This document shows, piece after piece, positions 177 to 24,611 of a stretch of DNA of 32,000 bases. How positions within the stretch are numbered: position 1 is the stretch's first letter; every line of letters starts with the position of its first letter. Both the position numbers and the translations under genes were made by a program. The stretch is from Mucisphaera calidilacus (GTDB lineage: Bacteria; Planctomycetota; Phycisphaerae; Phycisphaerales; Phycisphaeraceae), in NCBI RefSeq assembly GCF_007748075.1, contig NZ_CP036280.1, positions 150,001 to 182,000 on the forward strand, read 5' to 3'. The notes beneath the pieces were generated by a model. It ran no database searches. It was not told where the DNA came from and worked only from the letters and a program-made list of their open reading frames with translations.

Positions 177-356
177 CGCCAGTCCCTCATAATCTCGTTG
201 AATCAGGAAATTTAGCCGCAACAGCCCCAACCGGCAACAAGGTAAGTCACGCGGACCCAACGCTGATGACCTCCCCACGCCAACTCCGATGATAAATGCG
301 GGATGCGCCATCACCCCGCGCCCGATCCAAGGCAGGCCAGCGAGGAACACCCCCGC

Positions 357-1253: not shown

Positions 1254-1266
1254 GACCCGGAGCAGG

Positions 1267-2673: not shown

Positions 2674-3941
2674 CCAGGATCCTCATCGAGCAAAGCGGCT
2701 ACGGGCTTGGCAACGCCGGCGACGTCGCCATGCTCCTCTCACTGACCCAACGCATCCGCCGCAGCCGACCCGATATCCAACTCTCCGTCCTCACCGACAA
2801 CCCCGAACGACTCACACGCATCATCCCCAACACCACCCCCGTCGACCCGCAGCACAAAGGATTCCTCACCCAGGACTGGTGCCTCCTCGGCGCTCTCCAA
2901 CGAGTCCTGCCCGACGCGTGGAAGCCGCACCTGCTCCGGCTCGAACGAAAAACCTGCTCCTACGCACCACGCCGGGCCGCGGCATGTGTCGACGCAAGAC
3001 CCAAGAAACGCCCCCTCAACCCCACCGCCCGGCAGACCATCGACTGGCTCGACAGCTTCGACGGACTCATCGTCAGCGGCGGCGGATTCCTCACCGACGT
3101 CTTCAAGCGACACGGACAACTCGTGCTCCTGCTCGCCGCCGTCATGCACCGCCTCGGTAAACCCGTCGCCATGCTCGGACAGGGCATCGGACCCGCAGAC
3201 GACCCCCAACTCCGTAGCGACCTCCAACACACCCTCCCACGCGTCGATGTCCTCGGCCTGCGTGAGGGCGCTCACGGCCCCCGACTCCTCAACGAACTCC
3301 GCGTCCCTCAACACGCCGTCACCGTTACGGGCGACGAGGCCCTACCACTCGTCCGCGACAGCATCGACCCCAACGCCACCAGCCGCGGCGCCATCGGCAT
3401 CAACATCCGGGCCGCCAGCTACGCAGGACTCCACGAGTCACCCGTCCCGCAGCACGTCGCCGACGCAGCACAACAACTCGGCCGCGACCTCCAGCCCCTG
3501 CCGATCTCCTGGAACCACGACGACAACGACATCACGCCCCTGAAGCACCTCCTCCCACAGCACCTCTGCGACGAGATCCGAGAACCCCTGTCGCCCACGC
3601 AGATCGTCCGCCTCGCCGGCCGCTGCGACCTCACCGTCACCGGCAGCTACCACGCCGCACTCTTCTCGCTCGCGCAGGGCATACCCGTCATCGGCATCGC
3701 CGCCAATGCCTACTACCAGTACAAGTTCCAGGGACTCGCCGAACGCTTCGACCCCCGCAACGTCACCATCATCAACCCCAACGAAATACGCTCCGCCGAC
3801 GACATGCTCGCCCTCTGCCGCAGAGCACTCGACATCGACGACGACCGGCGTGCCGACCTGCGACAACGAGCAACCCTGCAGGCACAAGCCGTCTGCGACA
3901 CCGGCGAGAAAGCACTCGCCGCCTACCCCAAACCAGCATGA
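2670..3941 (+). CDS. Polysaccharide pyruvyl transferase family protein (WcaK/CsaB-like)
   Basis: In-frame ATG 2670 overlaps the flippase stop (ATGA). Conserved blocks are MTRILIEQSGYGLGNAGDVAML, LIVSGGGFLTD and TGSYHAALFSLAQGIPVIGI, as in PF04230. The upstream part of track ORF 1314..3941 is an out-of-frame artefact. Confidence 0.7.
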   Translation: MTRILIEQSGYGLGNAGDVAMLLSLTQRIRRSRPDIQLSVLTDNPERLTRIIPNTTPVDPQHKGFLTQDWCLLGALQRVLPDAWKPHLLRLERKTCSYAPRRAAACVDARPKKRPLNPTARQTIDWLDSFDGLIVSGGGFLTDVFKRHGQLVLLLAAVMHRLGKPVAMLGQGIGPADDPQLRSDLQHTLPRVDVLGLREGAHGPRLLNELRVPQHAVTVTGDEALPLVRDSIDPNATSRGAIGINIRAASYAGLHESPVPQHVADAAQQLGRDLQPLPISWNHDDNDITPLKHLLPQHLCDEIREPLSPTQIVRLAGRCDLTVTGSYHAALFSLAQGIPVIGIAANAYYQYKFQGLAERFDPRNVTIINPNEIRSADDMLALCRRALDIDDDRRADLRQRATLQAQAVCDTGEKALAAYPKPA

Positions 3942-4843
3942 ACATCACCGTCCTCCTGCCCGTGTACAACGCCCAACGCTACCTCGACGCAGCGGTCAGC
4001 AGCATCCGCGCGCAGACCCACCAGAGCTTCAACCTCATCGCACTCGACGACGGCTCCACCGACCACTCCCTCGACATCCTCAAACAACACGCCCGTGAAG
4101 ACGACCGCGTCACCGTCATTACACGCGAGAACCGCGGACTCATCGCAACTCTCAACGAGATGGTCGACCACGCCGACACCGAGTTCCTCGCACGCATGGA
4201 CGCCGACGACATCGCCACACCCGACCGCTTCGAGCAGCAACTCAACACCCTCCGCAACGACAACGGCCTCGTTGCACTCGGAACCGACATCCGCATTATC
4301 GACCCGCACGATCGAATCCTCACCCACTTCAAACTCCCACGCGACCACGACGCCATCGACAACGCCAACCTCCAAGGCGGCGGACTCAACATCTGCCACC
4401 CCGTCGTCATGATGCGCACCGACGCCGTCCGGCAGGTCGGCGGATACCACAACGACTACCCCCATGCCGAGGACACCGACATCTTCCTCCGACTCGCCGA
4501 GGCCGGGAAACTCGCCAACCTCGAACACGTCGGCCTCCACTACCGCGTCCACCCCCAGAGCGTCGGCTACACCCACCGCAAGCAACAACTCCAGTCCGCA
4601 CGCAAGGCCGCCATCGACGCCTGCACACGACGCAACATCCAGCCGCACCCCTCACTCACGAACCAGAACACACCCGACGAACAACCCGCCTCACCCGCCG
4701 ACATCTACCGGCGATGGGGGTGGTGGGCACTACGCGACCAGCACCTCAAAACCGCACGACACTACGCCCTCAAGGCCACACGCCACGACCCGCTCTCCCG
4801 CGAATCCTGGCGACTCCTCGCCTGCGCCCTCCGAGGACACTGA
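3938..4843 (+). CDS. Glycosyltransferase family 2
   Basis: MNITVLLPVYNAQRYLDAAVSSIRAQTHQSFNLIALDDGSTDHS followed by an RMDADD motif, the classic GT-A/GT2 N-terminus. The start overlaps the upstream stop (ATGA). Confidence 0.85.
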   Translation: MNITVLLPVYNAQRYLDAAVSSIRAQTHQSFNLIALDDGSTDHSLDILKQHAREDDRVTVITRENRGLIATLNEMVDHADTEFLARMDADDIATPDRFEQQLNTLRNDNGLVALGTDIRIIDPHDRILTHFKLPRDHDAIDNANLQGGGLNICHPVVMMRTDAVRQVGGYHNDYPHAEDTDIFLRLAEAGKLANLEHVGLHYRVHPQSVGYTHRKQQLQSARKAAIDACTRRNIQPHPSLTNQNTPDEQPASPADIYRRWGWWALRDQHLKTARHYALKATRHDPLSRESWRLLACALRGH

Positions 4844-4847
4844 CACC

Positions 4848-5924
4848 GTGAAGCCCCTACGCATCACCTTCCTCCTCCCCCACGCCGGACTCTCAGGCGG
4901 CATCCGCGTCGTCGCCATCTACGCCCAGCACCTCCAACAACGCGGGCATAGCGTCACCATCGTCTCCACGCCCCTGCCCACACCAACGCTCAAGCAACGC
5001 CTCGCCGCCGCCTGCCGCGGCCACTGGCTCCCCCGCAAAACACCCCACGGCCCCTCCCACCTCGATAACCTCGACCTCGACTGGCGCATCCTCGACACCC
5101 TCCGCCCCATCACCAACAAAGACGTCCCCGACGCCGACGTCGTCGTCGCCACCTGGTGGGAAACCGCCGATTGGATGATGAACCTCCACCCCGACAAGGG
5201 CACACCCGTCTACTTCTGCCAGGGATTCAAGGAAACCGACAGCCCCGGACTCGAAGCCACCTACCACCTGCCAATCCCCAAAATCACCGTCTCCCAGTGG
5301 GTCGCCGACAACCTCCGAAGCATCAACAACGATCACCCCATCACCATCATCCCCAACGCCGTCGATACCCAACGCTTCGCCCGCAACACCAGCACCCCAC
5401 GAAACCCCCTGCAACTCGGCATGGTCTACGCGCACGTCAGCATCAAGGGCTGCGACATCGCCCTCGACGCCTGCGAACGCGTCCGCCGGTCCGGACTGCC
5501 CGTCACGCTCACCACCTTCGGCAACGATCGCATCGATCCCGACACCATCCAACCCTGGCAAACACACACCACCCAGCCGCCGCAGCAGGACATCCCATCC
5601 CTCTACGCCGCCTCACACGCCTGGCTTTTCCCCTCCCGCGCCGAGGGCTTCGGCCTCCCCATACTCGAGGCCATGGCATGCAGAACCCCCGTCATCGGCA
5701 CACCCGCCGGGGCCGCGCCCGAACTCATCGGCCAAGGCGGCGGGATCCTCGTCCCCCACGAAGACCCCCAGGCTATGGCCGACGCCATCCTCAGAATCTG
5801 CAACATGCCCGACCACGAATGGCAGGCCATGGCCGACGCCGCCTACCAGACCGCCACCAGCTACACCTGGGACGACGCCACCGACCGATTCGAGCAGGCC
5901 CTCGCCACGGCCGCCCGCTCCTGA
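4848..5924 (+). CDS. Glycosyltransferase family 4 (GT-B, group 1)
   Basis: GTG 4848 lies 4 nt after the GT2 stop. The N-terminus VKPLRITFLLPHAGLSGGIRVVAIYAQHLQQRGHSVTIV and the C-terminal FPSRAEGFGLPILEAMACRTPVIGT (E-x7-E block) fit GT4. The upstream part of track ORF 4464..5924 overlaps GT2 out of frame. Confidence 0.85.
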   Translation: MKPLRITFLLPHAGLSGGIRVVAIYAQHLQQRGHSVTIVSTPLPTPTLKQRLAAACRGHWLPRKTPHGPSHLDNLDLDWRILDTLRPITNKDVPDADVVVATWWETADWMMNLHPDKGTPVYFCQGFKETDSPGLEATYHLPIPKITVSQWVADNLRSINNDHPITIIPNAVDTQRFARNTSTPRNPLQLGMVYAHVSIKGCDIALDACERVRRSGLPVTLTTFGNDRIDPDTIQPWQTHTTQPPQQDIPSLYAASHAWLFPSRAEGFGLPILEAMACRTPVIGTPAGAAPELIGQGGGILVPHEDPQAMADAILRICNMPDHEWQAMADAAYQTATSYTWDDATDRFEQALATAARS

Positions 5925-5929
5925 CCCCC

Positions 5930-5958
5930 TTGCATCGCCACGCAAACCCCGCTAAACT
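5930..5958 (+). promoter_or_regulatory. Candidate sigma70-type promoter for rpmI-rplT
   Basis: TTGCAT (5930-5935), a 17-nt spacer, then TAAACT (5953-5958), about 33 nt before the rpmI ATG. It overlaps a 7-bp inverted repeat, GCCACGC 5937-5943 / GCGTGGC 5959-5965. Confidence 0.3.
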
Positions 5959-5990
5959 GCGTGGCTCGCTACACAAGCAAGGGAACCGGT

Positions 5991-6266
5991 ATGCCCAAGC
6001 AGAAGACACACAAAGGCCTGCTCAAACGCGTCCGCGTCACCGCACGCGGCAAAGTGAAGTTCCGCAAGGTCGGCACCAGCCACCTCAACTCCGGACTCAC
6101 AGGCCAGAAGATGCGCGACCTCCGACAGCCCGCCTACGCCAAGAAAGGCGACGTCAAGAAGCTCTCACGCATGCTCATGACACGCATCCGGTCCACCGAG
6201 TACATCGCACGGCTCGACGCCGAACGCGAAAACGCCGAAACCGACAAGAACGGTCAGAGCAACTAA
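5991..6266 (+). CDS. rpmI: 50S ribosomal protein L35
   Basis: MPKQKTHKGLLKRVRVTARGKVKFRKVGTSHL is the canonical L35 N-terminus. It carries about 25 extra C-terminal residues (RIRSTEYIARLDAERENAETDKNGQSN). Confidence 0.9.
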   Translation: MPKQKTHKGLLKRVRVTARGKVKFRKVGTSHLNSGLTGQKMRDLRQPAYAKKGDVKKLSRMLMTRIRSTEYIARLDAERENAETDKNGQSN

Positions 6267-6313
6267 ATCACTGATATCGCGGCACTTGCCGCCTTTTCAC
6301 GACGGAGCTGAAC

Positions 6314-6691
6314 ATGCCACGCGCTGCCAAGGGTGCCGCCCGCCGACAGTCCAAAGTCCGCTGGTTCAAGAAAGCCAAGGGCAACCGCGGCGCACGCCGC
6401 ACGCAGTGGGGCCGCATCAAGGAGACCGTCTACCGCGCAGGCGTCTACGCCTACGAGCACCGGCGTCTGGTCAAACGCGACTACCGCAAACTCTGGATCC
6501 TCCGCGTCTCCGCGGCCTGCAAGATGCGTGGCATCAACTACTCACGCTTCATCCACGGCCTCAAACTCGCCAACATCATCATCAACCGCAAGATGCTCAG
6601 CGAGATCGCCATCGCCGACCCCCAGGGATTCGACCTCATCGTCGAACAGGCCAAGGCAGCAATCGAAGCCGACGCCAAACAGGCCGCCTGA
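6314..6691 (+). CDS. rplT: 50S ribosomal protein L20
   Basis: MPRAAKGAARRQSKVRWFKKAKGNRGARR...YAYEHRRLVKRDYRKLWILRVSAACKMRGINYSRFIHGLK is canonical L20. ACGGAG lies upstream of the ATG. Confidence 0.95.
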   Translation: MPRAAKGAARRQSKVRWFKKAKGNRGARRTQWGRIKETVYRAGVYAYEHRRLVKRDYRKLWILRVSAACKMRGINYSRFIHGLKLANIIINRKMLSEIAIADPQGFDLIVEQAKAAIEADAKQAA

Positions 6692-6789
6692 CCCCAACGG
6701 TTCCCGACGCCTCGAACAACCGCTTTCCGGGAACCCAACCGAATCGGTCGATAGTGCTCTGTCGACACGTCTGTTAGGAGGACGATCCC

Positions 6790-7512
6790 ATGAACAACAT
6801 CGACGCCCTCGAACGCGGATTCCACGCCGATACCTGGCGCATGTTCCGCATCATCTCCGAATTCGTCGACGGCTTCGAGGTCATGTCCGAGGTCGGACCC
6901 GCCGTCACCGTCTTCGGGTCCGCACGTACCCCCGAATCCGACCCCATGTACACCCGCGCCGTCGAGATCGGGCACAAAATCTGCGACCAGAAACTCGCCG
7001 TCATCACCGGAGGCGGGCCGGGCATCATGGAAGCCGCCAACCGCGGCGCCCACGAATCAGGCGGCGTCTCCGTCGGACTCAACATCGCACTCCCCCTCGA
7101 ACAGGCACCCAACCCCTACCAGACCCACGAGCTCAACTTCCGCTACTTCTTCGTCCGCAAAGTCATGTTCGTCAAGTACGCCTGCGGCATCGTCCTCTTC
7201 CCGGGCGGCTTCGGAACCATGGACGAGTTCTTCGAAACCCTCACCCTCGTTCAGACCGAAAAAATCCGACGCATCCCCATCGTCTGCTTCGGCACCGACT
7301 TCTGGTCCGGACTCATCGACTGGATGAAGCAGACCATGCTCGAACGATTCGAGACCATCAGCCCCGAAGACCTCGACCTCTTCCACCTCACCGACGACGT
7401 CGACGACGCCGTCCGACACGTCATGTCCAGCTACGACCGCGACGAGTGGATCGAGAAACACAAGGCCGGACTCCCCACCGACCTCACCACCGACCACCGA
7501 CGATTCCAGTAA
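6790..7512 (+). CDS. LOG family protein (TIGR00730-type, cytokinin riboside 5'-monophosphate phosphoribohydrolase-like)
   Basis: Signatures VFGSARTP, ITGGGPGIMEAANRGA and FPGGFGTMDEFFE (PGGxGTxxE). AGGAGGA lies 7 nt upstream of the ATG. Confidence 0.85.
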   Translation: MNNIDALERGFHADTWRMFRIISEFVDGFEVMSEVGPAVTVFGSARTPESDPMYTRAVEIGHKICDQKLAVITGGGPGIMEAANRGAHESGGVSVGLNIALPLEQAPNPYQTHELNFRYFFVRKVMFVKYACGIVLFPGGFGTMDEFFETLTLVQTEKIRRIPIVCFGTDFWSGLIDWMKQTMLERFETISPEDLDLFHLTDDVDDAVRHVMSSYDRDEWIEKHKAGLPTDLTTDHRRFQ

Positions 7513-7532
7513 GCTCCCGCCGGAGGACCACC

Positions 7533-8324
7533 ATGAGCACCACCGGCGAAGAACTCATCTCAACCAACCGACGACACGACGTCATCCTCTTCGACGTCGA
7601 CGGCTGCCTCGTCGCCGAACACACCGAAATCCTCAACATCCCCGCGCTCGCCAGAGTCGCCGAGTACAACAGAATCGCCATCGAGCAACGCGACCGACCC
7701 GAGATCACCCTCTGCACCGGACGACCCCAGCCCTTCGCCGAGTGCATGACCCGACTCCTCGGCAATCTCGACCTGCCCATCATCTGCGAGAACGGCGTCT
7801 ACCTCTTCCACCCGCGCGAACACCGCTACGACATGGACCCCGCCATCACCGACGACCACATCACCGCCATCGAAGATGCCAAGCACTGGGTCCTCCACAC
7901 CTTCGCCAAGGACGGACTCACCATCCAGCCCGGCAAAGAAGCCTCCTTCTCCCCCTACCACGCCCACCCGCCCGCACTCGACCCCATGATCCCACGCATC
8001 CGCGAGGAAGCCGAGAAACGCGGCTGGCCCATCCGCGTCTCGCGATCCTGGAACTACATCAACTGCGACCTCCAGCACATCTCCAAACGCACCGGCATCG
8101 CACGCTTCTTCGACGCCACCGGACTCCGACACGACCGCGCCGCAGGCGTAGGCGACACCCTGGGCGACACCGCCATCGCCGAGGCCGTCGACTGGTTCGC
8201 CTGCCCCAACAACGCCGACCCCAAACTCAAAGAACACGCCCACTTTGTCGCCCGACAGGACGAGATCCTCGGATCCCTTGAAATCCTCGAAGAACTCGAG
8301 CAACGCGAACCGCAAAGGCACTGA
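7533..8324 (+). CDS. HAD-superfamily hydrolase (subfamily IIB/Cof-like)
   Basis: In-frame ATG 7533 is preceded by GGAGGA (7522-7527). Motif I is DVILFDVDGCLV and the late motif is GVGDTLGDTAIAEAVDWFACPNNA. The upstream 400 codons of track ORF 6333..8324 are an artefact overlapping rplT and LOG. Confidence 0.7.
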   Translation: MSTTGEELISTNRRHDVILFDVDGCLVAEHTEILNIPALARVAEYNRIAIEQRDRPEITLCTGRPQPFAECMTRLLGNLDLPIICENGVYLFHPREHRYDMDPAITDDHITAIEDAKHWVLHTFAKDGLTIQPGKEASFSPYHAHPPALDPMIPRIREEAEKRGWPIRVSRSWNYINCDLQHISKRTGIARFFDATGLRHDRAAGVGDTLGDTAIAEAVDWFACPNNADPKLKEHAHFVARQDEILGSLEILEELEQREPQRH

Positions 8325-8326
8325 GC

Positions 8327-9352
8327 ATGACCAACCGATGGACCCCCGAGCAGGCACAGAACTGGGCCGATCAACACCCTTGGTACTGCGGCGCTAACTT
8401 CTACCCCTCCACCGCCATCAACCAACTTGAGATGTGGCGGGCCGAAACCTTCGACCCCGTGACCATCGACCGCGAACTCGGCTGGGCCGCCGAACTCGGC
8501 ATGAACCTCATGCGCGTCTACCTCCACGACCTGCTCCACCTCCACGACGCCGAGGGCCTCAAGCAACGCGTCGACGCCTACCTCGCCATCGCCCACAAGC
8601 ATGGCATCGACACCATGCTCACCCTCTTCGACGACTGCCATCGCAAAGACTTCGCCTGGGGCACCCAGCCCGAACCCGTCCCCTTCAAGCACAACTCCGG
8701 CTGGGCCCAGTCCCCCGGCCAGGCCGTCCTCGCCGACAACACCCAGTGGACCCGCCTCCAGGACTACGTCCTCGACGTCCTCGATCAATTCAAGGACGAC
8801 CCCCGCGTCGCCCTCTGGGACCTCTACAACGAACCGGGCAACAGCCCCTTCTTCCAGGATCAGGACAAGGCCTACTCCCTCGAACCCACCCTCGACCTGC
8901 TCCAGCGAACCTTCGCCTGGGCACGCTCGATCGAACTCACCCAGCCGATCACCGCCGGCGTCTTCACCTTCTCCGACGAGTTCAAAGCCCTCAACGACTG
9001 CCAGCTCGACAACTCCGACATCATCTCCTTCCACAGCTACGACCCGCCCGAACAGCTCCTCACCATGATCGAACGCCTCCAGGCCCACGGCCGGCCGCTC
9101 GTCTGCTCCGAGTACATGGCTCGGACCCGAGGCAGCACCTTCCAGCACTGCCTGCCCCTCCTCCGCCGGCACAACGTCGCCGCCATCAACTGGGGCCTGG
9201 TCGCCGGCAAGTCAGGCACCATCTACCCCTGGGGCTGGGACGCTTCCAAGGGCGAACCCTACCTCTGCTTCCACGACGTCTTCCGCCCCGACGGCTCCAT
9301 GCTCTACCCCGAAGAACGCCAGGCCATCACCAGCGTGACCCAGCCGGGATGA
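8327..9352 (+). CDS. Glycoside hydrolase, GH5-like TIM barrel (cellulase/xylanase-like)
   Basis: ALWDLYNEPGN (acid/base NEP motif) and LVCSEYMA (candidate nucleophile Glu). No signal peptide is visible. The start lies 2 nt after the HAD stop. Confidence 0.65.
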   Translation: MTNRWTPEQAQNWADQHPWYCGANFYPSTAINQLEMWRAETFDPVTIDRELGWAAELGMNLMRVYLHDLLHLHDAEGLKQRVDAYLAIAHKHGIDTMLTLFDDCHRKDFAWGTQPEPVPFKHNSGWAQSPGQAVLADNTQWTRLQDYVLDVLDQFKDDPRVALWDLYNEPGNSPFFQDQDKAYSLEPTLDLLQRTFAWARSIELTQPITAGVFTFSDEFKALNDCQLDNSDIISFHSYDPPEQLLTMIERLQAHGRPLVCSEYMARTRGSTFQHCLPLLRRHNVAAINWGLVAGKSGTIYPWGWDASKGEPYLCFHDVFRPDGSMLYPEERQAITSVTQPG

Positions 9353-9366
9353 TGAATCTCACTCTC

Positions 9367-9410
9367 GGGTGGCTGTGGACAGACCCGAGCCCGCGAGGGG
9401 CTGCCCACAG
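9367..9410. repeat. Left REP-like palindrome
   Basis: CTGTGGACAG (9373-9382) pairs 9/10 with CTGCCCACAG (9401-9410). The 12-mer GGCTGCCCACAG (9399-9410) recurs at 9993-10004. Confidence 0.6.
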
Positions 9411-9440
9411 AAGTATGGGACATTACGATATCATGCTTTT

Positions 9441-9977
9441 ATGAAATCATCATTCATTGAAGCACCTCACTGCATCCATATCCTGACATTCAGTTGTTAT
9501 CACGGGTACCAGTTTCTCAACGCCGAGCGAACACGTCATTGGCTTGCCAGAGCCACCGACTCTGCATGCCTTGAGTTCAATACCCGACTCATTGCTTACG
9601 TCTTTATGCCTGAGCATGTTCACATGATGATTCAGCCCAGACTGGCCTCGATGGTGACGGACCGTTTCCTCCGTCGTGTGAAAGCACCCGTTGCTCGGAA
9701 AGCAATTCAACACCTTGTCCAATCGAATCCCGCATGGCTCGCTCGTATTTCCCGTAAACGCGGCCATCGAACCGAGCGGGTCTTCTGGCAGTCAGGAGGA
9801 GGTTACGATCACTGCACCTATTCTGATACCGAAGCCAATCGCCTGATCGACTATATTCATACCAATCCTGTGAGGAAAGGGCTTGTAGTTCGGCCGCAGG
9901 ATTGGATCTGGTCGAGCGCAGCATGGTACGTGTCAGGGAAGCCCGGTCCTTGTGTCGTCCACGGCATCAGATCTTGA
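9441..9977 (+). CDS. REP-associated tyrosine transposase (RAYT), IS200/IS605 Y1 HUH family
   Basis: The HUH motif is in FMPEHVHMMIQP and the catalytic-Tyr helix is in LIDYIHTNPVRKGLVVRPQDWIWSS. ATG 9441 is preferred, because the GTG 9369 extension would run through the REP palindrome. Confidence 0.8.
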   Translation: MKSSFIEAPHCIHILTFSCYHGYQFLNAERTRHWLARATDSACLEFNTRLIAYVFMPEHVHMMIQPRLASMVTDRFLRRVKAPVARKAIQHLVQSNPAWLARISRKRGHRTERVFWQSGGGYDHCTYSDTEANRLIDYIHTNPVRKGLVVRPQDWIWSSAAWYVSGKPGPCVVHGIRS

Positions 9978-9992
9978 GACAGTCGTTATTTC

Positions 9993-10071
9993 GGCTGCCC
10001 ACAGGATCTTCGATCATCTGGCACCCACAACTCTGTGGGCAAGACCCTTTGGGCCTTGTCCACAGCCACCC
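9993..10071. repeat. Right REP-like palindrome cluster
   Basis: TGCCCACAG (9996-10004) pairs perfectly with CTGTGGGCA (10033-10041). An inner CCCACA (10024-10029) / TGTGGG (10034-10039) pair is also present. The terminal TTGTCCACAGCCACCC lies at 10056-10071. Confidence 0.6.
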
Positions 10072-10102
10072 GACCGGATCCGTCTCGAGATCCCCATCGC
10101 CC

Positions 10103-11542
10103 CTAGTACAGCGTCTCAATCTCCGCGCCCGGATAGAAGAAGGCGAGGATCTCCGCGTGGCCGTAACCGCGTGTCGCCATGTCCTGCGCCCCCCACTGCG
10201 AGAGCCCGACGCCGTGTCCGTAACCCCGCCCTTCGACGATCACGACGCGTTCGCCACGCACCTCGACCTGCACAAAACTGCTCTTGAGTCGTTCGTTGCG
10301 CTCCAGAGGCGTCAGCGTGGGCCGCGTGTAGTTCGCCGCCCAGCGGAACTGCTCGGAGTGCAGCACGAAGTCGTTGCCATCGAGGTCGATCAGCGTGAAT
10401 TCCACCGGCCGGCCCGCCTGGGTCTTCTTGGTGACCACGATCCGGATCAGCCCGTTCATCCGCGCGACCGCGTGCCGGTTGGCGACGCCCCACGCCTTGA
10501 CGCGGGCCACGAACGCGACCTTGCTCCGGTTGATCGGTCCCCACTTGGCGTGGGGGCTGGTTGCGCCGACGTCGTAGTGATTGCGGCTGCGTAGCGGCGC
10601 GATTTTCGCCACGTCGCCGAAGGCATCCCACGCGCTCTGGGCCGCGCCACCCGAGTCGGCCGAGTAGAACGCCGGCACGACCCTGCGGTCATAGACCAAG
10701 ACCTGGCCCTCGGTGTCGCGGACCGCGTCCAATGCCCGCTGGTGCGAGGTCGCGCCGGTGTAGACCTGGCTGGCCGTGGTCGATTCGAGGTCGAAGCCGC
10801 GGGCCTGTGTGGTTGAGGCCTCGAAGATCGCGTAGGTGCGGGCAGCGACCGCCTGCGTGCGGAAAGCCGCCGGCTCCCAATTGCCATAGAGCTCGCCGAT
10901 GAGCACGCCCGGCAGGTAGGTCTCGATCGGGACGTAATTCATGACGTCGAGGTCGGGGCTGTCGGTCTCGCTGCGGTAGCCGTGCTCGACGACCAGCTGG
11001 CCGGGGTACTTCTTGCCGTTGAGGCCGATCGGCTCGCCATCGACCGAGCGGAGGCCGACGCGCGGGCCGACGATGCCGTAGGTCTCGCCCTGCCCGTCGG
11101 TCACGCTCAGGCCGGTGATCGTCCGCCGGATGGTCACCGGAGCGGTCATGGTCGTGGGTGCGTCCAGCCGGTCTCCGATCCCGACCATGCCGACGTTGTA
11201 GCTGCTGTCGCCGCCGAACCGAAGGTTCTGGGCGTTCTTCATGATCCGCACGCGGAGGATCGGCTCGCCGGTGACGGACGCGGCGGGCGGCCCGTGGCGG
11301 AGGGTGGGAACGGCGAGGGCGCGGTTTGCGGAGACCCGCTCTTCCTTGGTGCGGAGGACCTGCGGCTGGAGTTCCTCGGGGTCGAGGGGCTCCCACTGCG
11401 ACTCGCAGGCCGTGACCGAGAGCACGAGCAGCAGGCCGATGAGGCTCAGGATGCCGAGGGTGAGGTTCGGGCGTTCCCGCCAGTCAAACCTTCGCCAGTC
11501 GTATTGTTGCCGGTTCAAGCGGATTCGGTGCATGAGATTCAT
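10103..11542 (-). CDS. SpoIID/LytB domain protein (cell-wall lytic transglycosylase / amidase enhancer family)
   Basis: N-terminal membrane anchor LTLGILSLIGLLLVLSVTAC. Conserved blocks are YLPGVLIGELYGNWEPAAFRTQAVAARTYA, VPAFYSADSGG and GRGYGHGVGLSQWGA. GAGAGGAG lies 6 nt upstream of the ATG. Confidence 0.85.
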   Translation of the reverse strand: MNLMHRIRLNRQQYDWRRFDWRERPNLTLGILSLIGLLLVLSVTACESQWEPLDPEELQPQVLRTKEERVSANRALAVPTLRHGPPAASVTGEPILRVRIMKNAQNLRFGGDSSYNVGMVGIGDRLDAPTTMTAPVTIRRTITGLSVTDGQGETYGIVGPRVGLRSVDGEPIGLNGKKYPGQLVVEHGYRSETDSPDLDVMNYVPIETYLPGVLIGELYGNWEPAAFRTQAVAARTYAIFEASTTQARGFDLESTTASQVYTGATSHQRALDAVRDTEGQVLVYDRRVVPAFYSADSGGAAQSAWDAFGDVAKIAPLRSRNHYDVGATSPHAKWGPINRSKVAFVARVKAWGVANRHAVARMNGLIRIVVTKKTQAGRPVEFTLIDLDGNDFVLHSEQFRWAANYTRPTLTPLERNERLKSSFVQVEVRGERVVIVEGRGYGHGVGLSQWGAQDMATRGYGHAEILAFFYPGAEIETLY

Positions 11543-11664
11543 CGCGGCTCCTCTCGTCCGTGAGATGCCGAGGCTGGGGCGTCTTCCTTGTGCCGAGTCA
11601 CATTATCGGCCCTAACCGCCCAGATTGCCAACTCCGGGTCCGGGTGATCGGGTAGGATCGGCAC

Positions 11665-13470: not shown

Positions 13471-13503
13471 GAAAAAAGACAAGGCTCCGTTGGGAGCCTT
13501 GCC
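13471..13503 (-). terminator. Rho-independent terminator, best for the minus-strand PEP-CTERM gene; sits between convergent genes
   Basis: CAAGGCTCC (13480-13488), loop GTTG, GGAGCCTTG (13493-13501). On the minus strand the hairpin is followed by CTTTTTTC. Confidence 0.5.
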
Positions 13504-13530: not shown

Positions 13531-14220
13531 TCAGCGTCGTGCGCGACGTGCGGCCATCAGTCCGAGGAGGACGAGTCCGCCGGCCGCTGCGGCGGGTGAG
13601 GGTGCGGGGATGGGCGGGGGCGCGACCTGGTGCTGGGTGACGACACGCATGGTGTCGATGCGGGCGTTGCCGGGGACGTACCAGTTGAAGTCGGCGGTCG
13701 TGCCGGCGACGGTGGTGACGTCGTTGATCCCGCCGCCGCCTGCGCCGGCGCCGCGGTCACGCGCGTTGGTGGGGTAGAGGACATCGACGCCAAGCGTCGC
13801 GGGGACGTAGGTGGCCTCGTCCCAGAGCGAGGTGATGGCCTGCTCGAAGGTGTTGAGGGCGTTGTCGGCGCCGAAGTAGCCCAGGATGGTCGCTTCGAAA
13901 TCGAAGGACATGTCGAGGGTGCCGCCGGTGGCGTGGTCGGGGTCGTAGTGGACGTAGTGGACGTCGACGAGGGTGCCGCCCGCTGCGCTAACGGTCTCGA
14001 TGTAGTCGGAACCGATGAGGTCGGTGATGCTGCTGAGCGAGAGCCCGCTGAACTCCTCGAAGACCAGGATGCCGTTGTCGGGCGTCGTGGTCCCGGTGGC
14101 GTCGCGGTTGTCGCGGAGGTCCGCCGTGCCGGATGCGGGCAGGGTTGTGACAGAGCCGGCCATGGCGTGCGAAGCGGTCAGGGTCAGAGCACCGAGTGCG
14201 GCGAGCGTGGAAATCTTCAT
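13531..14220 (-). CDS. Secreted PEP-CTERM-anchored protein (cargo 1)
   Basis: Signal peptide MKISTLAALGALTLTASHAMA. C-terminal sorting signal PIPAPSPAAAAGGLVLLGLMAARRARR (PEP-like motif, hydrophobic helix, Arg cluster). Confidence 0.7.
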   Translation of the reverse strand: MKISTLAALGALTLTASHAMAGSVTTLPASGTADLRDNRDATGTTTPDNGILVFEEFSGLSLSSITDLIGSDYIETVSAAGGTLVDVHYVHYDPDHATGGTLDMSFDFEATILGYFGADNALNTFEQAITSLWDEATYVPATLGVDVLYPTNARDRGAGAGGGGINDVTTVAGTTADFNWYVPGNARIDTMRVVTQHQVAPPPIPAPSPAAAAGGLVLLGLMAARRARR

Positions 14221-14533
14221 GGGAAAAGCCTTTCTACTCCAAGGTGTGCAGAAGTCATTACCGTCACCACCACGATGATTGGTATTGAGTTGAGGACGCA
14301 GCCTCGCGGGAAGTATGTGATTCAGGGGAGAAACGGCCAGCGATCTTGTGGGGATATGGGGTCGGAAGCTTGCCGGGCGTCTGCGTGATCGGCGCAGGTC
14401 TCCCGGTTTGACAGGTTGTGGCCTTGATGCGTGGGTGAATCACGGGGTGGCGGTGTTCGCGCGTCGCCGTACTGCTGTGCGCAGGCCGCGTCTGCGGCCC
14501 GGTCCGTCAGGCGTCACCCGGGTTGTGTATCGA

Positions 14534-16183
14534 TCAGCCGGCGAGTCGGTGCTGTGTGGATGGCTTGTCGTCGAGTGGTGCGACGTAGCGTCCGGGGCTG
14601 ATGGTGTCGTTGGGGTCGAGGGTCTGCTTGATGCTGTTGACCACGTCCCAGAAGGGGTCGCCTTCGAGGCGGAGCTTGGCGTAGCCGGTGGGCCCGCTGC
14701 GGTAGGGGATGAAGCCGGACTCCATGAGGATCTTCATCAGTTCCTCGTAGCAATCCTGGGCGCGCTGGCACTCTTCGGGGATGCGTTTGTCGAAGGAGAT
14801 GTTGGTGATGCAGATCATGGCGCGTTCGGTGATCATGGTGAAGGTGACCAGCGAGTCGAAGCCGTGTTTCTGGTAGACGGGTTCCATCAGGTTCATGAGC
14901 TGTCGAGCGTCTTCGCCACGGTTCGGCACGACGGGCGACAGCCATGCGATGCCGGCGTGGACGTCGAGCGGGTCGGCGGGCAGCTCGGGCTCGGGGTCGC
15001 GGACGCGCCAGGCGGCGCCGCGGATGTGTTCGTTGGAGGGTTCACCCTTGAGCAGGCCGTAGACGGGCTTGAAGATGCCGAGCATCTCGCCGAGCCAGCC
15101 TCCCGCGCCGACCATGGCCAGACCCTTCTGGATGCGTTCGGCGAGGGCGAGTCGCTGGTCGTTGATGAAGCGGACGTTGTAGGGCTTGAGGACTCGGGCG
15201 AGTTCCTTGCGGACGGCCCTGACGGTGCCTTTTGTGCCGGAGACGGAGCCGCAGCCGTTCCACATGCCGATCATGCCCTGCTTGCGGATGTCGGCGCGGA
15301 CGTCTTCGGGCAGGGGGGTGATGCCCTGCGTCTGGTCGAACGGGTAGCGCATGCGTGCGGACATGATGCGCAGGTCGTTGCCGATGTGGATCGCGCTCTG
15401 GAGGAGTCCCTGCATGCGGAGGGGTGCGAGTCGGTTGACGATGTCTTCGAGGTCGTGGTCGTTGTGTCCCATGAAGACGAAGGAGCAGAAGTCCTCGGGT
15501 TTAGGCATGAGCCAGATATTGATGCGTGTGACGATGCCCATGTTGGACTGGACGAAGAGCCCGTCGAGCATGGGCCCGACGCCATAGGGGTAGACCTTGT
15601 CGCTTTTGGCGTTGGGGTAGTGGCCGTAGCCGGTGTGGATGACGCGGCCGTCGGGGAGGACGACTTCCATGCCGCAGCAGGAGAGGAAGTGGTCGCCATA
15701 GCGTGTGTGCCCGAACCCGTGGTCAAGGGTGTTGCCGACGAGGCTGGCGTCGACGCCTGCGCCGGTGGCATCGACCCAGAGGTCGGGTGCGTGTTCGGCG
15801 AGGTGCTGGCTGAGTTGGCCCTGGGAGACGCCTGGCTGGATGACGGCGTAGGCGAGTTCGCGGTTGAGTTCGAGGACCTGGTTCATGCGTGAGAGGTCGA
15901 GGATGACCTGTCCGCGTTCGACCGGTCCTGCGTCGCCGTAGCCCCAGTTCTTGCCGCGTGAGATGGCGTGGACGGCGGTGTTGGTGTCGTTGGCGGCCTT
16001 GACGATCCCGGCGACCTCGTCGGTGGTGACGGGGTAGAGGATGGCGTCGGGGACGCGGGGGTTGCCGAAGGTCGATCGGCCGTAGCGCTGGCGTGTGGTC
16101 TCGGTGGCGTCGATGCGGTCGTCGGGGAGGATCCGGGCGACACGTCCGAGAAACTTCTGGGTATCGGCGATCTGCGCGCACAT
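14534..16183 (-). CDS. FAD-linked oxidase, VAO/PCMH (vanillyl-alcohol oxidase / p-cresol methylhydroxylase-like) family
   Basis: Family-like blocks are AISRGKNWGYGDAGP, MNQVLELNRELAYAVIQPGVSQGQL, GNTLDHGFGHTRYGDHFLSCCGMEVVLPDGRVIHTG and GLFVQSNMGIVTRINIWLMPKPE. ATG 16183 is preferred (AGGAGA 8 nt upstream) over ATG 16234. Confidence 0.8.
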   Translation of the reverse strand: MCAQIADTQKFLGRVARILPDDRIDATETTRQRYGRSTFGNPRVPDAILYPVTTDEVAGIVKAANDTNTAVHAISRGKNWGYGDAGPVERGQVILDLSRMNQVLELNRELAYAVIQPGVSQGQLSQHLAEHAPDLWVDATGAGVDASLVGNTLDHGFGHTRYGDHFLSCCGMEVVLPDGRVIHTGYGHYPNAKSDKVYPYGVGPMLDGLFVQSNMGIVTRINIWLMPKPEDFCSFVFMGHNDHDLEDIVNRLAPLRMQGLLQSAIHIGNDLRIMSARMRYPFDQTQGITPLPEDVRADIRKQGMIGMWNGCGSVSGTKGTVRAVRKELARVLKPYNVRFINDQRLALAERIQKGLAMVGAGGWLGEMLGIFKPVYGLLKGEPSNEHIRGAAWRVRDPEPELPADPLDVHAGIAWLSPVVPNRGEDARQLMNLMEPVYQKHGFDSLVTFTMITERAMICITNISFDKRIPEECQRAQDCYEELMKILMESGFIPYRSGPTGYAKLRLEGDPFWDVVNSIKQTLDPNDTISPGRYVAPLDDKPSTQHRLAG

Positions 16184-16363
16184 AGGGAGGGTCTCCTGTT
16201 CTGTGGAGGGGTATCGACCGTTCGGCGGCGGCATGTGACTGTGAGGGGGGTAACGCGCGCGTGTTAAGAATGGCGGTTTAGCTTGTCTGGGTTTGAGTCG
16301 TGCGTGGCGGGTGCCGATGCAGATGGTGAGCCGGGAGTCCTCTTATCTTGGGAGTGCGTTCGG

Positions 16364-17116
16364 ATGTCAGAGCAGGAATCGTCCACGGGAGCGGAGTCGT
16401 TTGAGCCGTCGGCGAACGGGTCCGGGCTGACGTTTGACGTCGCTCGTGATCTCGCTGAGGTCGAGGAGTGCTGGTCGCTGGTTTATCGGTCGTACATCAA
16501 GGCGGGTCTGATCGAGCCGAACGCGGAGCGGGTGCACACGGTGCCGCAGACGATCTCGCCCGGGACGCTGGTGGCGTATGGCCGAATCCATGACGTGATC
16601 GTGAGCACGATGACGGTCTATCTCGACGGCCCTTTGGGTCTGCCTTTGGACATGGTTTACAAGGACGAGTTGGATCAGCTGCGTGGCGAGGGTCGGAAGC
16701 TGGTGGAGCTGGGGTTGTTCGCGGACCGCCGTCAGCACCTGTACCGGTCGATCGACGCGATCCTGGAGTTGATGCGTTATTGCACGCATTACTCGGTGAA
16801 CGAGGGGCATCTGGATGCGGTGGTGGGTGTGAACCCGCGGCACGTGCCGTTCTATGTGAAGCTGCTGGGGTTTGAGGCGATCGGTGAGACGAAGACCTAC
16901 GAGACGGTGAACGACTTCCCGGTGGTGCTGTTGCACCTGGACTGGCCGAAGAAGACTGCGATGAAGCGTCTGCCAAAGGGTCTGGCGCATCTTCACGAGC
17001 CGGCGATCAGCCCGGACTACTACGCGACGCGTTGTGTGCTGACGCCTGAGCGGATCGCGGGGACGCCTGTTGAGAAGGCGGTGGAGCGCAAGTCGGTGGC
17101 GTTGTCGGCGATGTGA
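16364..17116 (+). CDS. FeeM-like long-chain N-acyl amino acid synthase (GNAT-related; resembles the PEP-CTERM/exosortase-associated acyltransferase branch)
   Basis: EECWSLVYRSYIKAGLIEPN..., STMTVYLDGPLGLPLDMVYKDELDQLRGEGRKLVELGLFA and VVGVNPRHVPFYVKLLGFEAIGETKTYETVNDFPVVLLHLD follow the FeeM/NasY family pattern as I recall it. ATG 16364 has GGGAG upstream. Confidence 0.6.
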   Translation: MSEQESSTGAESFEPSANGSGLTFDVARDLAEVEECWSLVYRSYIKAGLIEPNAERVHTVPQTISPGTLVAYGRIHDVIVSTMTVYLDGPLGLPLDMVYKDELDQLRGEGRKLVELGLFADRRQHLYRSIDAILELMRYCTHYSVNEGHLDAVVGVNPRHVPFYVKLLGFEAIGETKTYETVNDFPVVLLHLDWPKKTAMKRLPKGLAHLHEPAISPDYYATRCVLTPERIAGTPVEKAVERKSVALSAM

Positions 17117-17136
17117 GGGTGATTCTGAGTGGGTGT

Positions 17137-17175
17137 AAAAAAAGAGCGTGAGCCGAAGCTCACGCTCTTTGTGTT
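17137..17175. terminator. Bidirectional rho-independent terminator between convergent genes
   Basis: AAAGAGCGTGAGC (17141-17153), loop CGAA, GCTCACGCTCTTT (17158-17170): a perfect 13-bp stem. An A-run lies 5' and a T-rich tract lies 3'. Confidence 0.75.
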
Positions 17176-17201
17176 ATTCAGATGTGGGTCCTGATGGTGT
17201 A

Positions 17202-17984
17202 TCAGGCGATGCGGCGACGGCGGGCAGCAGCCAGGCCGACGAGCATCAGGCCGCCGAGAGCAGCGGTCGGGGTGGGGAGCACGGTGGTGGTGACCACGAA
17301 CTGTGCCTGGTCTTCGAACTCGCCGGGCGTGGTGGTCGCGGTAACCGAACCGGTGCCGATCACGGGCGGAACGGTGATGAAGTCGGGGCTGGTCAGCAGC
17401 GGGCCGCCGGTGACGTCAAGAGCGGCCTGGATCGAGGACGACACGGGGCCGGCGATCAGCTGGTAGAAGCCGCCAGCGACGATGTCGAGTTCAGCGAAGA
17501 GGCTGCCGTCGGTGATGCCGGCGCCACCGCCCCAGGCGGTGCTGTTGTACGCGGCGGTGCCCGAAGCGACGAGCGAGGTGTCACGGATGCCGTCGGCACG
17601 GTCGTCTTCGAAGATCTCGAAGTCGGCGATCGACATGTTGGTCACGGGGCCGACCACGTCGAGGACGGTCAGGGTGAAGCGGCCGAAGACCTCAACGTCG
17701 GTGTCGGCGAGGGTGATCGAAGCGGCGGGCGGATCACCGATTTCGGCGACCTGGATCGACTCGATGGTGAAGACGCCTTCGATCGTGTCACCGGCGACGG
17801 GGACGGCGGCACCGAGGCTCGTCGAGAGGCTCAGGTCGTTGAAGGTGTACTCGGCGGGGACACCAGCGAGGTTAACGCTGTTGGCCAGATCGAGCATAAC
17901 GCTCTGCACGGAATCGGCCTGGGCCGTGGTGCTGCCAGCGAACGCTGCAGCGGCGATTGCGGATGCGGTCAAAATCTTTTTCAT
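17202..17984 (-). CDS. Secreted PEP-CTERM-anchored protein (cargo 2)
   Basis: ATG 17984 is preceded by GGAGAGG. Signal peptide MKKILTASAIAAAAFAGSTTAQA. C-terminus VLPTPTAALGGLMLVGLAAARRRRIA. Confidence 0.7.
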   Translation of the reverse strand: MKKILTASAIAAAAFAGSTTAQADSVQSVMLDLANSVNLAGVPAEYTFNDLSLSTSLGAAVPVAGDTIEGVFTIESIQVAEIGDPPAASITLADTDVEVFGRFTLTVLDVVGPVTNMSIADFEIFEDDRADGIRDTSLVASGTAAYNSTAWGGGAGITDGSLFAELDIVAGGFYQLIAGPVSSSIQAALDVTGGPLLTSPDFITVPPVIGTGSVTATTTPGEFEDQAQFVVTTTVLPTPTAALGGLMLVGLAAARRRRIA

Positions 17985-18166
17985 GATACCTCTCCTCATT
18001 GGGGTTCAAACGGTTGTTTACGAAGGCGGAACATCCCACCCATTGGTCAGCCCACCTCCATAGCAGGCAAAATACGTCTTTCCTCATCCAAACACATGTC
18101 GTCCAGACTTCCCTGCCCTTCCGACGTACGCAGATAATCCGCTTCCGCGGTCACTGCGACACCTAT

Positions 18167-18194
18167 AAAATACCCAATGGCGTGAGTGTGTCAA
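18167..18194 (-). promoter_or_regulatory. Candidate sigma70-type promoter for PEP-CTERM cargo 2
   Basis: On the minus strand: perfect TTGACA (18194-18189), a 16-nt spacer, then TATTTT (18172-18167). It implies a 5' UTR of about 175 nt. Confidence 0.35.
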
Positions 18195-23822: not shown

Positions 23823-24611
23823 TCAGGATTTGTCCCGCTCGATCCGGCCCCGGCGCGGGAACAGGGCGACGGCGAGGAGGGTGAGGGCCGCGGTGGAGGG
23901 TTCGGGGTTTGTGTCGTGCGGGACGGGGTTGGATCGGCCGGGTGTGGGCGTGATGGTGCCGTTGGGCGTCTGGATGTGTGCCGAGATGTTGAAGGTCTGC
24001 CAGTCGTCGAGGGCGGTTCGGTCGGGGGTCCAGGTGCGGAGGGTGATCTGGCCCGGGGATGTGGCGAGGGTTGGGCTGTCGACGAGGGGCGTGAGGCTGG
24101 TGGTGGGTGCGGGGGCGAGGGTGATCGCGTCGAGGATTCGGGTGGCGTATTGGGGCAGGGCGAGCAGTTCGGGGGTAAGTTGGAGGTAGGGATTGAGGGG
24201 TGTGTCGGCGTCGAGCAGCAGGGCGGTGAAGGGGAGGTTGGTGTCGAGGCCGGGTGTCAGCAGGGGTTGTGCGAGAGGATTGAGGGAGGCGGAGCCGATT
24301 TTGAGGTTGCTGGCGGGCGTCTGGCTGATGAGCAGTGCGGTGGCGGCGTGGTCGGGCGTGATGGTGGTCTGGGCGAGGATGTAGCCGTGTCGGTCGCGTT
24401 CGGGGGAGGCGTCGAGGATGAGGACCTGATAGCCGTTGGCGTGCTGGAGGTTGTCGATCTCGAGCATGGCGGGCCAGCTGGCGGATCGGCTGTTGTGGGC
24501 GGGGATGTACTCGGAGAAGAAGGGGTTGGCGAGGGTTGCCGGGTGGATGAGGGCGAGGCACAGCAGGGTGAGGATGGGCAGCCGCCGGAAGTCAGAGGGT
24601 GTTCGCGTCAT
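23823..24611 (-). CDS. Secreted PEP-CTERM-anchored protein (cargo 3)
   Basis: Signal peptide MTRTPSDFRRLPILTLLCLALIHPATLA. Canonical C-terminal NPEPSTAALTLLAVALFPRRGR, followed by a short tail. Confidence 0.65.
   Translation of the reverse strand: MTRTPSDFRRLPILTLLCLALIHPATLANPFFSEYIPAHNSRSASWPAMLEIDNLQHANGYQVLILDASPERDRHGYILAQTTITPDHAATALLISQTPASNLKIGSASLNPLAQPLLTPGLDTNLPFTALLLDADTPLNPYLQLTPELLALPQYATRILDAITLAPAPTTSLTPLVDSPTLATSPGQITLRTWTPDRTALDDWQTFNISAHIQTPNGTITPTPGRSNPVPHDTNPEPSTAALTLLAVALFPRRGRIERDKS

Follow-up and report, generated by a model that had tools for sequence, protein, structure and literature searches.

A 32,000-nt stretch of the genome of the marine planctomycete Mucisphaera calidilacus (NZ_CP036280.1, positions 150,001-182,000 of the forward strand; called the window below, with coordinates counted from window position 1) carries a divergent pair of genes encoding a FeeM-type N-acyl amino acid synthase and a flavoprotein of the 4-phenol-oxidising subgroup of the VAO/PCMH family. 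The two genes probably constitute a minimal two-gene module of the FeeM/FeeG type, in which the synthase would make an N-acyl-tyrosine lipid and the oxidase would decarboxylate this lipid oxidatively. The core of this idea, that a lipid of the N-acyl-tyrosine type is first made and then oxidised, was put forward in an earlier note on this DNA and is supported by the subgroup placement of the oxidase, by the conserved adjacency of the two genes and by gene fusions. The same note knew of no described FeeM-VAO pairing. FeeM and FeeG are already documented together (PMC11350588, PMC8762209, PMC11959600), and the claim of novelty therefore fails: the pairing itself is known and the window pair is a further FeeM/FeeG-type example. 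The synthase had also been flagged in the published genome analysis of strain Pan265T, which lists one antiSMASH 'N-acyl amino acids' cluster (PMC8882080).

Translation of the window confirmed the four open reading frames (ORFs) of the earlier note at the coordinates given there, and public gene calls match its starts for the oxidase (549 aa) and the FeeM-like synthase (250 aa). The central features are:

14534-16183, minus strand: VAO/PCMH flavoprotein of 549 aa, 4-phenol-oxidising subgroup, probable FeeG-like clade (domain, structure and alignment)
16184-16363: divergent spacer of 180 bp between the start codons of the oxidase and FeeM genes (gene calls)
16364-17116, plus strand: FeeM-type N-acyl amino acid synthase of 250 aa (PF21926, match to 2g0b, alignment)

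The product of 16364-17116 matches the Pfam FeeM family PF21926 with an E-value of 2.6e-39 and 135 bits (cutoff 27) over profile positions 2-158 of 158, and a PDB sequence search found the crystallised FeeM (2g0b) with E 4.6e-13. Its description as a FeeM/NasY-type synthase in the earlier note is thereby borne out. In an alignment of the synthase with FeeM (P0177) and 23 relatives, Glu115 aligns with the Glu of the FeeM KL(A/V)E motif (KLAE) and is invariant in all 25 sequences. Eight columns are invariant in this alignment, including Glu, Asp, Thr and Tyr types shared with FeeM. The acidic residue of the KL(A/V)E motif is said to be the catalytic base of FeeM, as reportedly described by Van Wagoner and Clardy in 2006. 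The synthase is longer than FeeM, with about 25 extra residues at the N-terminus and about 50 at the C-terminus. We infer that it would form an N-acyl amino acid from an acylated acyl carrier protein (acyl-ACP) and an amino acid. Membership in the exosortase-associated branch of the family (TIGR03694), which the earlier note had mentioned, was rejected because the synthase gave no NCBIfam match to that model at E ≤0.1, and its sole NCBIfam match is a partial one to PRK14852.

The product of 14534-16183 contains a FAD_binding_4 domain (PF01565, E 1.6e-28) and a weak match to FAD-oxidase_C in Pfam, and the motifs GKNWGYG, MNQVLELNRELAYAVIQPGV, GHTRYGDHF...GMEVVLPDG and GIVTRINIWLMPKP quoted in the earlier note were all found in its translation. 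Its nearest solved relatives in the PDB sequence search are vanillyl-alcohol dehydrogenase (VAD) of Marinicaulis (9e-81), nsVAO (8e-78), PCMH (3.5e-76), EUGO (about 1e-59) and VAO (about 1e-52), while D-lactate dehydrogenase reached an E-value of 2e-20 only. The fold gave the same ranking. An AlphaFold model of the oxidase (pLDDT 85.5, pTM 0.85) was compared with the PDB by Foldseek, and the best 47 matches are all 4-phenol VAO/PCMH enzymes with TM-scores of 0.74-0.85, followed by D-lactate dehydrogenase with 0.68. VAD (8S7P), nsVAO (9FFK), PCMH (1DII), EUGO (5FXD) and VAO (1VAO) share the two-domain fold of the oxidase with TM-scores of 0.81-0.85. The protein thus belongs with the 4-phenol-oxidising VAO/PCMH flavoproteins, as already proposed in the earlier note, and not with enzymes of the D-lactate/glycolate type.

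Two features of the active site had been singled out for checking in the earlier note, the phenolate-binding residues and the covalent-FAD His, and they gave opposite results. The phenolate site is present as Tyr82, Tyr494 and Arg495 (549-aa numbering), equivalent to Tyr108, Tyr503 and Arg504 of VAO, and this Tyr/Tyr/Arg site is shared with the solved 4-phenol oxidisers. Among 84 relatives Tyr494 and Arg495 are invariant, and position 82 is Tyr in all but one (83/84). The flavin site was read with Table 1 of PMC7617285 as a key. At the position of the covalent His (H422 of VAO, H387 of VAD) the oxidase has Ile412, and across the 84 relatives this position is nearly always Leu or Ile, with Val, Phe or Met in a few. 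The position of the PCMH-type covalent Tyr384 is Pro405, in a region without Tyr. At the flavin N5 the pair Gly141-Ala142 replaces Asp170-Leu171 of VAO, and Gly or Ala is found there throughout the family, whereas an acidic residue at this site is characteristic of the oxidase clades. The characterised enzymes have Asp-Leu (VAO and EUGO), Asp-Pro (VAD), Ala-Pro (PCMH) or Thr-Val (nsVAO) at this place, and a covalent FAD link is typical of the 4-phenol subgroup yet not universal, nsVAO being without one (PMC7617285). Since the covalent His and Tyr positions are Ile412 and Pro405, we predict that the FAD (flavin adenine dinucleotide) is bound non-covalently, as in nsVAO, where the covalent-His position is likewise hydrophobic. 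The oxidase is also predicted to have no Asp base at the flavin N5. It differs from the solved enzymes in the N5 pair and in a cap segment at about 336-427 in the numbering of the 566-aa ORF (about 319-410 in the 549-aa protein), which could not be aligned to any of them.

FeeG and CndG are VAO/PCMH enzymes of the 4-phenol subgroup which decarboxylate N-acyl-tyrosines oxidatively via a p-quinone methide (PMC11350588 section 5.2.1; PMC8762209; PMC11959600). An oxidative-decarboxylase clade ('OxD') is recognised in the VAO/PCMH phylogeny (PMC7617285 Fig. 1), and the supplement of that paper names no OxD members. For comparison, a FeeM query (residues 52-186, rebuilt from the PDB alignment) was used to walk to clusters of the fee type. 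Close homologues of the crystallised FeeM, with 56-72% identity, are found in metagenome-assembled genomes (MAGs) of Patescibacteria, the candidate phyla radiation (CPR), namely Kaiserbacteria and Paceibacterota (loci L087-L091). These fee-type clusters comprise GDSL lipases, a MacB exporter, a nitroreductase-like protein, ThiF, an acyltransferase, a phosphopantetheinyl transferase (PPTase), ACP and FeeM. The occurrence of fee-type clusters with the nearest FeeM relatives in CPR MAGs suggests that the original fee cluster from soil environmental DNA (eDNA) originated in a CPR bacterium. No VAO-type gene was found in the clusters L087, L088 and L091. The variant L089/L090, in contrast, encodes a 532-aa FAD_binding_4 protein, which is FeeG-like and itself a 4-phenol VAO/PCMH member. 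Besides ACP, PPTase, an acyltransferase and ThiF, L089 encodes an ABC exporter and a FeeM that shares 65% identity with authentic FeeM.

The FeeG-like protein of L089 shares 31% identity with the window oxidase over the full length (E 4e-77), including the cap segment that does not align to any solved enzyme. Both proteins have the TGAG (Gly-Ala) motif at N5, and in the L089 protein the covalent-His position is occupied by Leu. Scored against relatives of the window oxidase, the L089 protein reaches 391-431 bits with its best matches, compared to 186 bits with VAD. In a neighbour-joining tree of 138 sequences, rooted on one partial VAD outgroup, the FeeG-like protein nests within the superclade of the window oxidase. 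From these alignments and this tree the window oxidase likely belongs to the oxidative-decarboxylase clade.

The neighbourhood of the oxidase was compared across genomes. A scan of one genome per species for oxidase relatives returned 80 loci. By local phmmer, FeeM lies within 10 kb of the oxidase in 18 of 83 loci, and L084, which was added later, is one more. The clade of the window oxidase in the neighbour-joining tree comprises 13 sequences from Planctomycetota, mostly Phycisphaerae, and FeeM is adjacent in 13/13, nearly always in the same divergent head-to-head arrangement. The closest other relatives of the oxidase, from Mucisphaera sp. and Phycisphaeraceae MAGs, are 71-81% identical to it. 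In L084 (Phycisphaeraceae) the wider order is syntenic, with SpoIID, RecJ, a homologue of 13531-14220, oxidase, FeeM and a homologue of 17202-17999. Clustering of the neighbouring ORFs revealed nothing conserved with the pair besides FeeM and the oxidase themselves. An exhaustive HMMER search with the window oxidase matched 1333 representative clusters (50% identity) at E ≤1e-30. The matches listed include two single-chain fusions of FeeM and oxidase, P0215 (822 aa, from a Planctomycetota MAG) and P0317 (788 aa), as well as a fusion of the oxidase to a nonribosomal peptide synthetase (NRPS) of the architecture C-A-PCP-TE (P0308). All 150 listed clusters outscore VAD against the window oxidase (290-621 vs 272 bits). 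The earlier note had named conservation of the two genes as neighbours as a check of its idea, and the adjacency in the clade together with the existing fusions speaks in its favour. Because of this adjacency and these fusions, it is very likely that synthase and oxidase are functionally coupled.

Other oxidase relatives (P0216, P0224, P0257, P0340) carry fused S-adenosylmethionine (SAM) methyltransferase domains, and some of these proteins also have an ABC1 kinase-like domain or, at the N-terminus, a 7TM (HisKA_7TM) region. They add to the tailoring architectures built on the oxidase.

In the proposed pathway the FeeM-type synthase would transfer a long fatty acyl chain onto the amino group of L-tyrosine, with housekeeping acyl-ACP presumably as acyl donor because no dedicated ACP is encoded nearby. 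The oxidase would then bind the phenolate of the N-acyl-tyrosine via Tyr82, Tyr494 and Arg495, and the FAD, bound non-covalently, would take up a hydride from the benzylic carbon, so that a p-quinone methide is formed. The ring would become aromatic again as CO2 is lost, leading to an N-acyl-4-hydroxystyrylamine, an eneamide, as reported for FeeG and CndG. This compound is the most likely product, with N-acyl-dehydrotyrosine as the main alternative. The flavin would probably be re-oxidised by O2, as judged from the small residues at N5 (Gly-Ala), from the P151G variant of VAD, which turns into an oxidase (PMC7617285), and from the absence of a cytochrome gene nearby. Neither a gene for a cytochrome c subunit nor aromatic-degradation genes were found in the 32-kb window.

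Several points weigh against this pathway. Alongside the pair, the window contains no gene for an ACP, for acyl activation or for export. The synthase is only about 27% identical to FeeM, and it is solely the partner oxidase that points to tyrosine as its substrate. Orthology of the oxidase to FeeG and CndG would depend on the FeeG-like protein as a proxy and on a neighbour-joining tree with a single partial outgroup, and by phmmer the window oxidase scores about equally against VAD (272 bits) and the FeeG-like protein (247 bits). FeeM is absent within 10 kb of about 65 close relatives of the oxidase, which come from Hydrogenedentota and from loci labelled Nitrospirales, and the oxidase family is therefore not limited to FeeM products. 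The large sister clade lacking FeeM (L002, L003, L020-L047 and others, from these two sources) has oxidases 45-52% identical to that of the window. In 23 loci a conserved CbiX-like gene of about 160 aa lies directly upstream of the oxidase gene, and in 20 loci an uncharacterised gene of about 360-390 aa is found downstream. Finally, sequence by itself does not separate decarboxylation from α,β-desaturation or hydroxylation.

One alternative keeps the module and changes its last step: the quinone methide would be resolved without loss of CO2, leading to an N-acyl-α,β-dehydrotyrosine, as in stieleriacines and thalassotalic acids, or to a β-hydroxy or β-oxo N-acyl-tyrosine. VAO-type enzymes dehydrogenate or hydroxylate 4-alkylphenols via the same intermediate (PMC7617285 Scheme 1), the window oxidase is just 31% identical to the FeeG-like protein, and Stieleria, also a planctomycete, makes N-acyl dehydrotyrosines by a desaturation step that is only speculatively assigned (PMC7293339 section 8; PMC7378531). 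The water-activating Asp of VAO is Gly141 here, which counts against hydroxylation and not against desaturation. On the other hand, the only characterised enzymes of the subgroup that act on N-acyl-tyrosines, FeeG and CndG, decarboxylate them (PMC11350588, PMC8762209). Moreover, FeeM of Stieleria, like that of several other loci, is accompanied by a pair of ThiF/TcdA-like and nitroreductase-like proteins and not by a VAO-type enzyme, and a ThiF-like protein has been proposed for the dehydro step in Stieleria (PMC7293339). These different partners argue for two separate tailoring routes. We regard an outcome without CO2 loss as unlikely.

The FeeM-like enzyme could also acylate another amino acid or an amine, with the oxidase acting on some other phenolic partner or on Tyr in a peptide or protein. 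FeeM-family enzymes with specificity for Phe, Trp or Arg are known from eDNA work (references within PMC7293339, PMC8762209), specificity is not readable from the sequence, and the distance to FeeM given above leaves room for such a change. However, the strict partnership and fusion with an oxidase whose Tyr/Tyr/Arg site binds a para-substituted phenolate argue for a tyrosine-derived product, and we consider another acyl acceptor very improbable.

That the oxidase is a catabolic 4-cresol, 4-alkylphenol or vanillyl-alcohol dehydrogenase beside an unrelated acyltransferase gene is hardly credible: source annotations at JGI call many relatives '4-cresol dehydrogenase (hydroxylating)', the top-scoring solved relative is the Marinicaulis VAD and many relatives have no FeeM, but the adjacency in 13/13 clade members and the fusions, the window free of cytochrome c subunit and aromatic-degradation genes, a flavin site (Gly-Ala, no covalent His or Tyr) unlike that of PCMH, EUGH, VAD, VAO and EUGO (PMC7617285 Table 1) and the at least 150 clusters at 50% identity that outscore any characterised enzyme against the window oxidase all speak against it.

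The proposed N-acyl-tyrosine decarboxylation module can be compared with four known systems. The fee cluster from soil eDNA, with the synthase FeeM, the ACP FeeL and the oxidase FeeG, was reportedly described by Brady, Chao and Clardy in 2002 and by Van Wagoner and Clardy in 2006. Like the window pair it combines a FeeM-family synthase with a 4-phenol VAO/PCMH flavoprotein, for acylation of Tyr followed by quinone-methide oxidation, and the Gly-Ala motif at N5 and the Leu or Ile at the covalent-His position are common to the window oxidase and the FeeG-like protein of the fee-type locus L089. Of the further genes seen in fee-type clusters, those for ACP, PPTase, acyltransferase, ThiF, the nitroreductase-like protein, GDSL lipases and the MacB exporter, the window locus has none. 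The window genes are divergent whereas the fee genes are part of a long cluster, and the host is a planctomycete of the Phycisphaerae whereas the close relatives of FeeM are found in Patescibacteria MAGs.

CndG belongs to chondrochloren biosynthesis in Chondromyces crocatus, which was reportedly studied by Rachid et al. in 2010. It resembles the oxidase in its proposed role, being a 4-phenol VAO/PCMH enzyme that converts an N-acylated Tyr into a styryl eneamide (PMC11350588). Its substrate is built by a polyketide synthase/NRPS line and that of the window oxidase would be built by a FeeM-type synthase; the CndG context is mirrored by P0308, the relative of the window oxidase fused to NRPS modules. 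CndG was compared by its description.

The hye cluster for hyellamide in Hyella patelloides (HyeB/HyeC) combines a decarboxylase homologous to FeeG with an acyltransferase that forms N-acyl-tyrosine and, as in the window, has no dedicated ACP (PMC11959600). Its acyltransferase is of the SGNH/GDSL family and not of the FeeM type (PMC11959600), and the window locus has no glycosyl- or acetyltransferase, unlike the hye cluster. In L001 of Phycisphaerales bacterium AB-hyl4 a UDP-glycosyltransferase is encoded directly beside the FeeM of such a pair (5374-7570), which recalls the glycosylated eneamide hyellamide (PMC11959600).

The stieleriacine cluster of Stieleria maiorica (Planctomycetia) is an N-acyl-tyrosine pathway with FeeM-type synthases and a PEP-CTERM gene inside the cluster (PMC7293339). 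Its tailoring is proposed to involve a TcdA/ThiF-like dehydratase, an oxidoreductase, a C-methyltransferase and a desaturase, and no VAO-type enzyme is described (PMC7293339). The stieleriacines are dehydrotyrosines that keep the carboxylate (PMC7293339), unlike the product proposed here. In Supplementary Table 3 Mal15_37310 of the Stieleria cluster appears only as 'hypothetical protein'.

A second combination for tailoring that recurs is FeeM together with ThiF and a nitroreductase-like protein (L086 at 8001-10954, and L087-L091). In L086 a ThiF/nitroreductase protein of 697 aa comes after FeeM. The N-terminus of the model PRK14852 (989 aa) matches FeeM, and since the model is about as long as both proteins together it may be a fusion of FeeM with ThiF/nitroreductase. 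A parallel to this combination is the TcdA-like step that has been proposed for the stieleriacines.

The pair is flanked by two genes for secreted proteins, and the features around it are:

13478-13503, minus strand: intrinsic-terminator-like hairpin of 11 pairs, 7 of them GC, with TTTTTT directly after it, downstream of the 13531-14220 gene
13531-14220, minus strand: secreted protein of 229 aa with PEP-CTERM-like architecture, tail IPAPSPAAAAGGLVLLGLMAARRARR (translation and tail inspection)
17134-17180: bidirectional terminator-like hairpin, stem 17141-17170 with 13 pairs, A7 upstream and TTTGTGTT downstream
17202-17999, minus strand: secreted protein of 265 aa with a signal-peptide-like N-terminus, tail LPTPTAALGGLMLVGLAAARRRRIA resembling PEP-, PTPA- and MYXO-CTERM, below threshold
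18167-18194, minus strand: sigma-70-like promoter match TTGACA-16-TATTTT, upstream of the 17202-17999 gene

The earlier note had called both flanking genes PEP-CTERM cargo. Their architecture agrees with this description, as both proteins have a signal-peptide-like N-terminus (MKISTLAALGALTLTASHAMA, MRRGIMKKILTASAIAAAAFAGSTTAQA) and a tail composed of PxP, a hydrophobic stretch and an Arg cluster (IPAPSP...RRARR and LPTPTA...RRRRIA), but none of the curated PEP-CTERM-type models was matched above its cutoff. Tail matches below threshold were obtained to MYXO-CTERM (14-18 bits, cutoff 20), PTPA-CTERM (12 bits, cutoff 29) and THxN/PepA PEP-CTERM. The 13531-14220 protein has no Pfam or NCBIfam family above threshold; a 48% identical homologue is encoded at the syntenic position in L084. 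The 17202-17999 protein has homologues of 49% identity in L084 (syntenic) and L004, and both flanking proteins are conserved solely in these nearest relatives. A paralogous relationship of the two proteins was rejected, their sole mutual similarity being an 11-residue tail match. No exosortase gene is present in the window.

PEP-CTERM-like tails, identified by a regular expression within 10 kb, are found in 9 of the 19 FeeM+oxidase loci and in 1 of the 66 FeeM-less oxidase loci (Fisher p = 2e-6). The tail-bearing FeeM+oxidase loci span three phyla (Planctomycetota, a locus labelled Desulfovibrionales, L065, and Desulfomicrobium, L080), and canonical PEP tails occur in the Phycisphaeraceae loci L007, L066 and L070 as well as in L065 and L080. 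The enrichment is confounded by phylogeny, the counts within Planctomycetota being 7/16 vs 1/12 (p = 0.09). N-acyl amino acid synthases have been linked to the PEP-CTERM/exosortase system before (Craig et al. 2011, as cited in PMC7293339, PMC12078418), and the co-occurrence fits this published link without establishing a role. The connection between the pair and the flanking cargo, which the earlier note had itself called suggestive, thus keeps that status: tails recur near such loci, and common descent may account for part of the signal. A tie of the lipid module to the neighbouring PEP-CTERM-type proteins and the extracellular matrix, in which the lipid would either signal how these proteins are expressed or sorted, or serve exosortase-processed proteins as partner or acceptor, is conceivable but rather doubtful.

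GGAG-type ribosome-binding sites precede the ATG codons of both oxidase and FeeM at the two ends of the spacer 16184-16363, and no sigma-70 consensus promoter was found within this spacer. The oxidase gene is followed on its own strand, after 313 bp, by the 13531-14220 gene. The clean terminator seen in the earlier note at about 17137-17175 was recovered as the hairpin 17141-17170, with a 13-bp stem and A7 and T-rich flanks, and is a candidate terminator in both directions, for FeeM and for the 17202-17999 gene that converges on it. The terminator at 13471-13503 had been described as the weaker one; its hairpin (13503-13478 on the minus strand) is followed by T6 and is better than this label. 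A candidate promoter for one flanking gene could be located as the sigma-70-like match upstream of 17202-17999, which is weak statistically, with one match found vs 0.6 expected by chance. Rfam families and tRNAs are absent from 13.5-18 kb of the window.

Elsewhere in the window, a block for polysaccharide biosynthesis at 270-5924 (plus strand) encodes a pyruvyl transferase, a Wzx-like flippase (Polysacc_synt_3) and a GT4 glycosyltransferase. It is parted from the pair by ribosomal-protein and housekeeping genes and is possibly relevant to the dense extracellular matrix of the strain (PMC8882080). The GC skew of the plus strand changes from about -0.3 (1-9.3 kb) to +0.15 to +0.48 (11.6-32 kb), whatever the gene orientation. 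This flip within 9353-11600 is strand-wide and of the replication type, with an unusually large amplitude, and the change from minus to plus is origin-like. The 750-bp intergenic region 9353-10102 has a lower GC content (about 0.58). A search for DnaA boxes at the skew switch was uninformative, with two one-mismatch matches vs 2.07 expected. The most extreme strand skew of the window (plus-strand GC skew 0.48) is found in a 262-aa ORF at 23823-24611 (minus strand), which has no Pfam match.

For the class Phycisphaerae no natural product is known, and all five reported compound classes of planctomycetes come from Planctomycetia (PMC12078418). M. calidilacus Pan265T is in culture and forms a dense extracellular matrix (PMC8882080), and the pair offers a compact, readily expressed two-gene candidate pathway from this strain. 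Its interest is modest and lies in three things: the minimal two-gene form, the host class and a signature for a mis-annotated oxidase clade. The oxidase family is large, as the number of clusters scoring above every characterised enzyme indicates, and for the oxidative-decarboxylase class of the VAO/PCMH family there is no crystal structure (PMC11350588). The signature of Gly-Ala at N5, no covalent flavin link and a distinct cap may help to annotate proteins mislabelled as '4-cresol dehydrogenase'. The recurring proximity of PEP-CTERM-type proteins contributes one more observation to the long-known, unexplained association of N-acyl amino acid synthases with exosortases (Craig et al. 2011).

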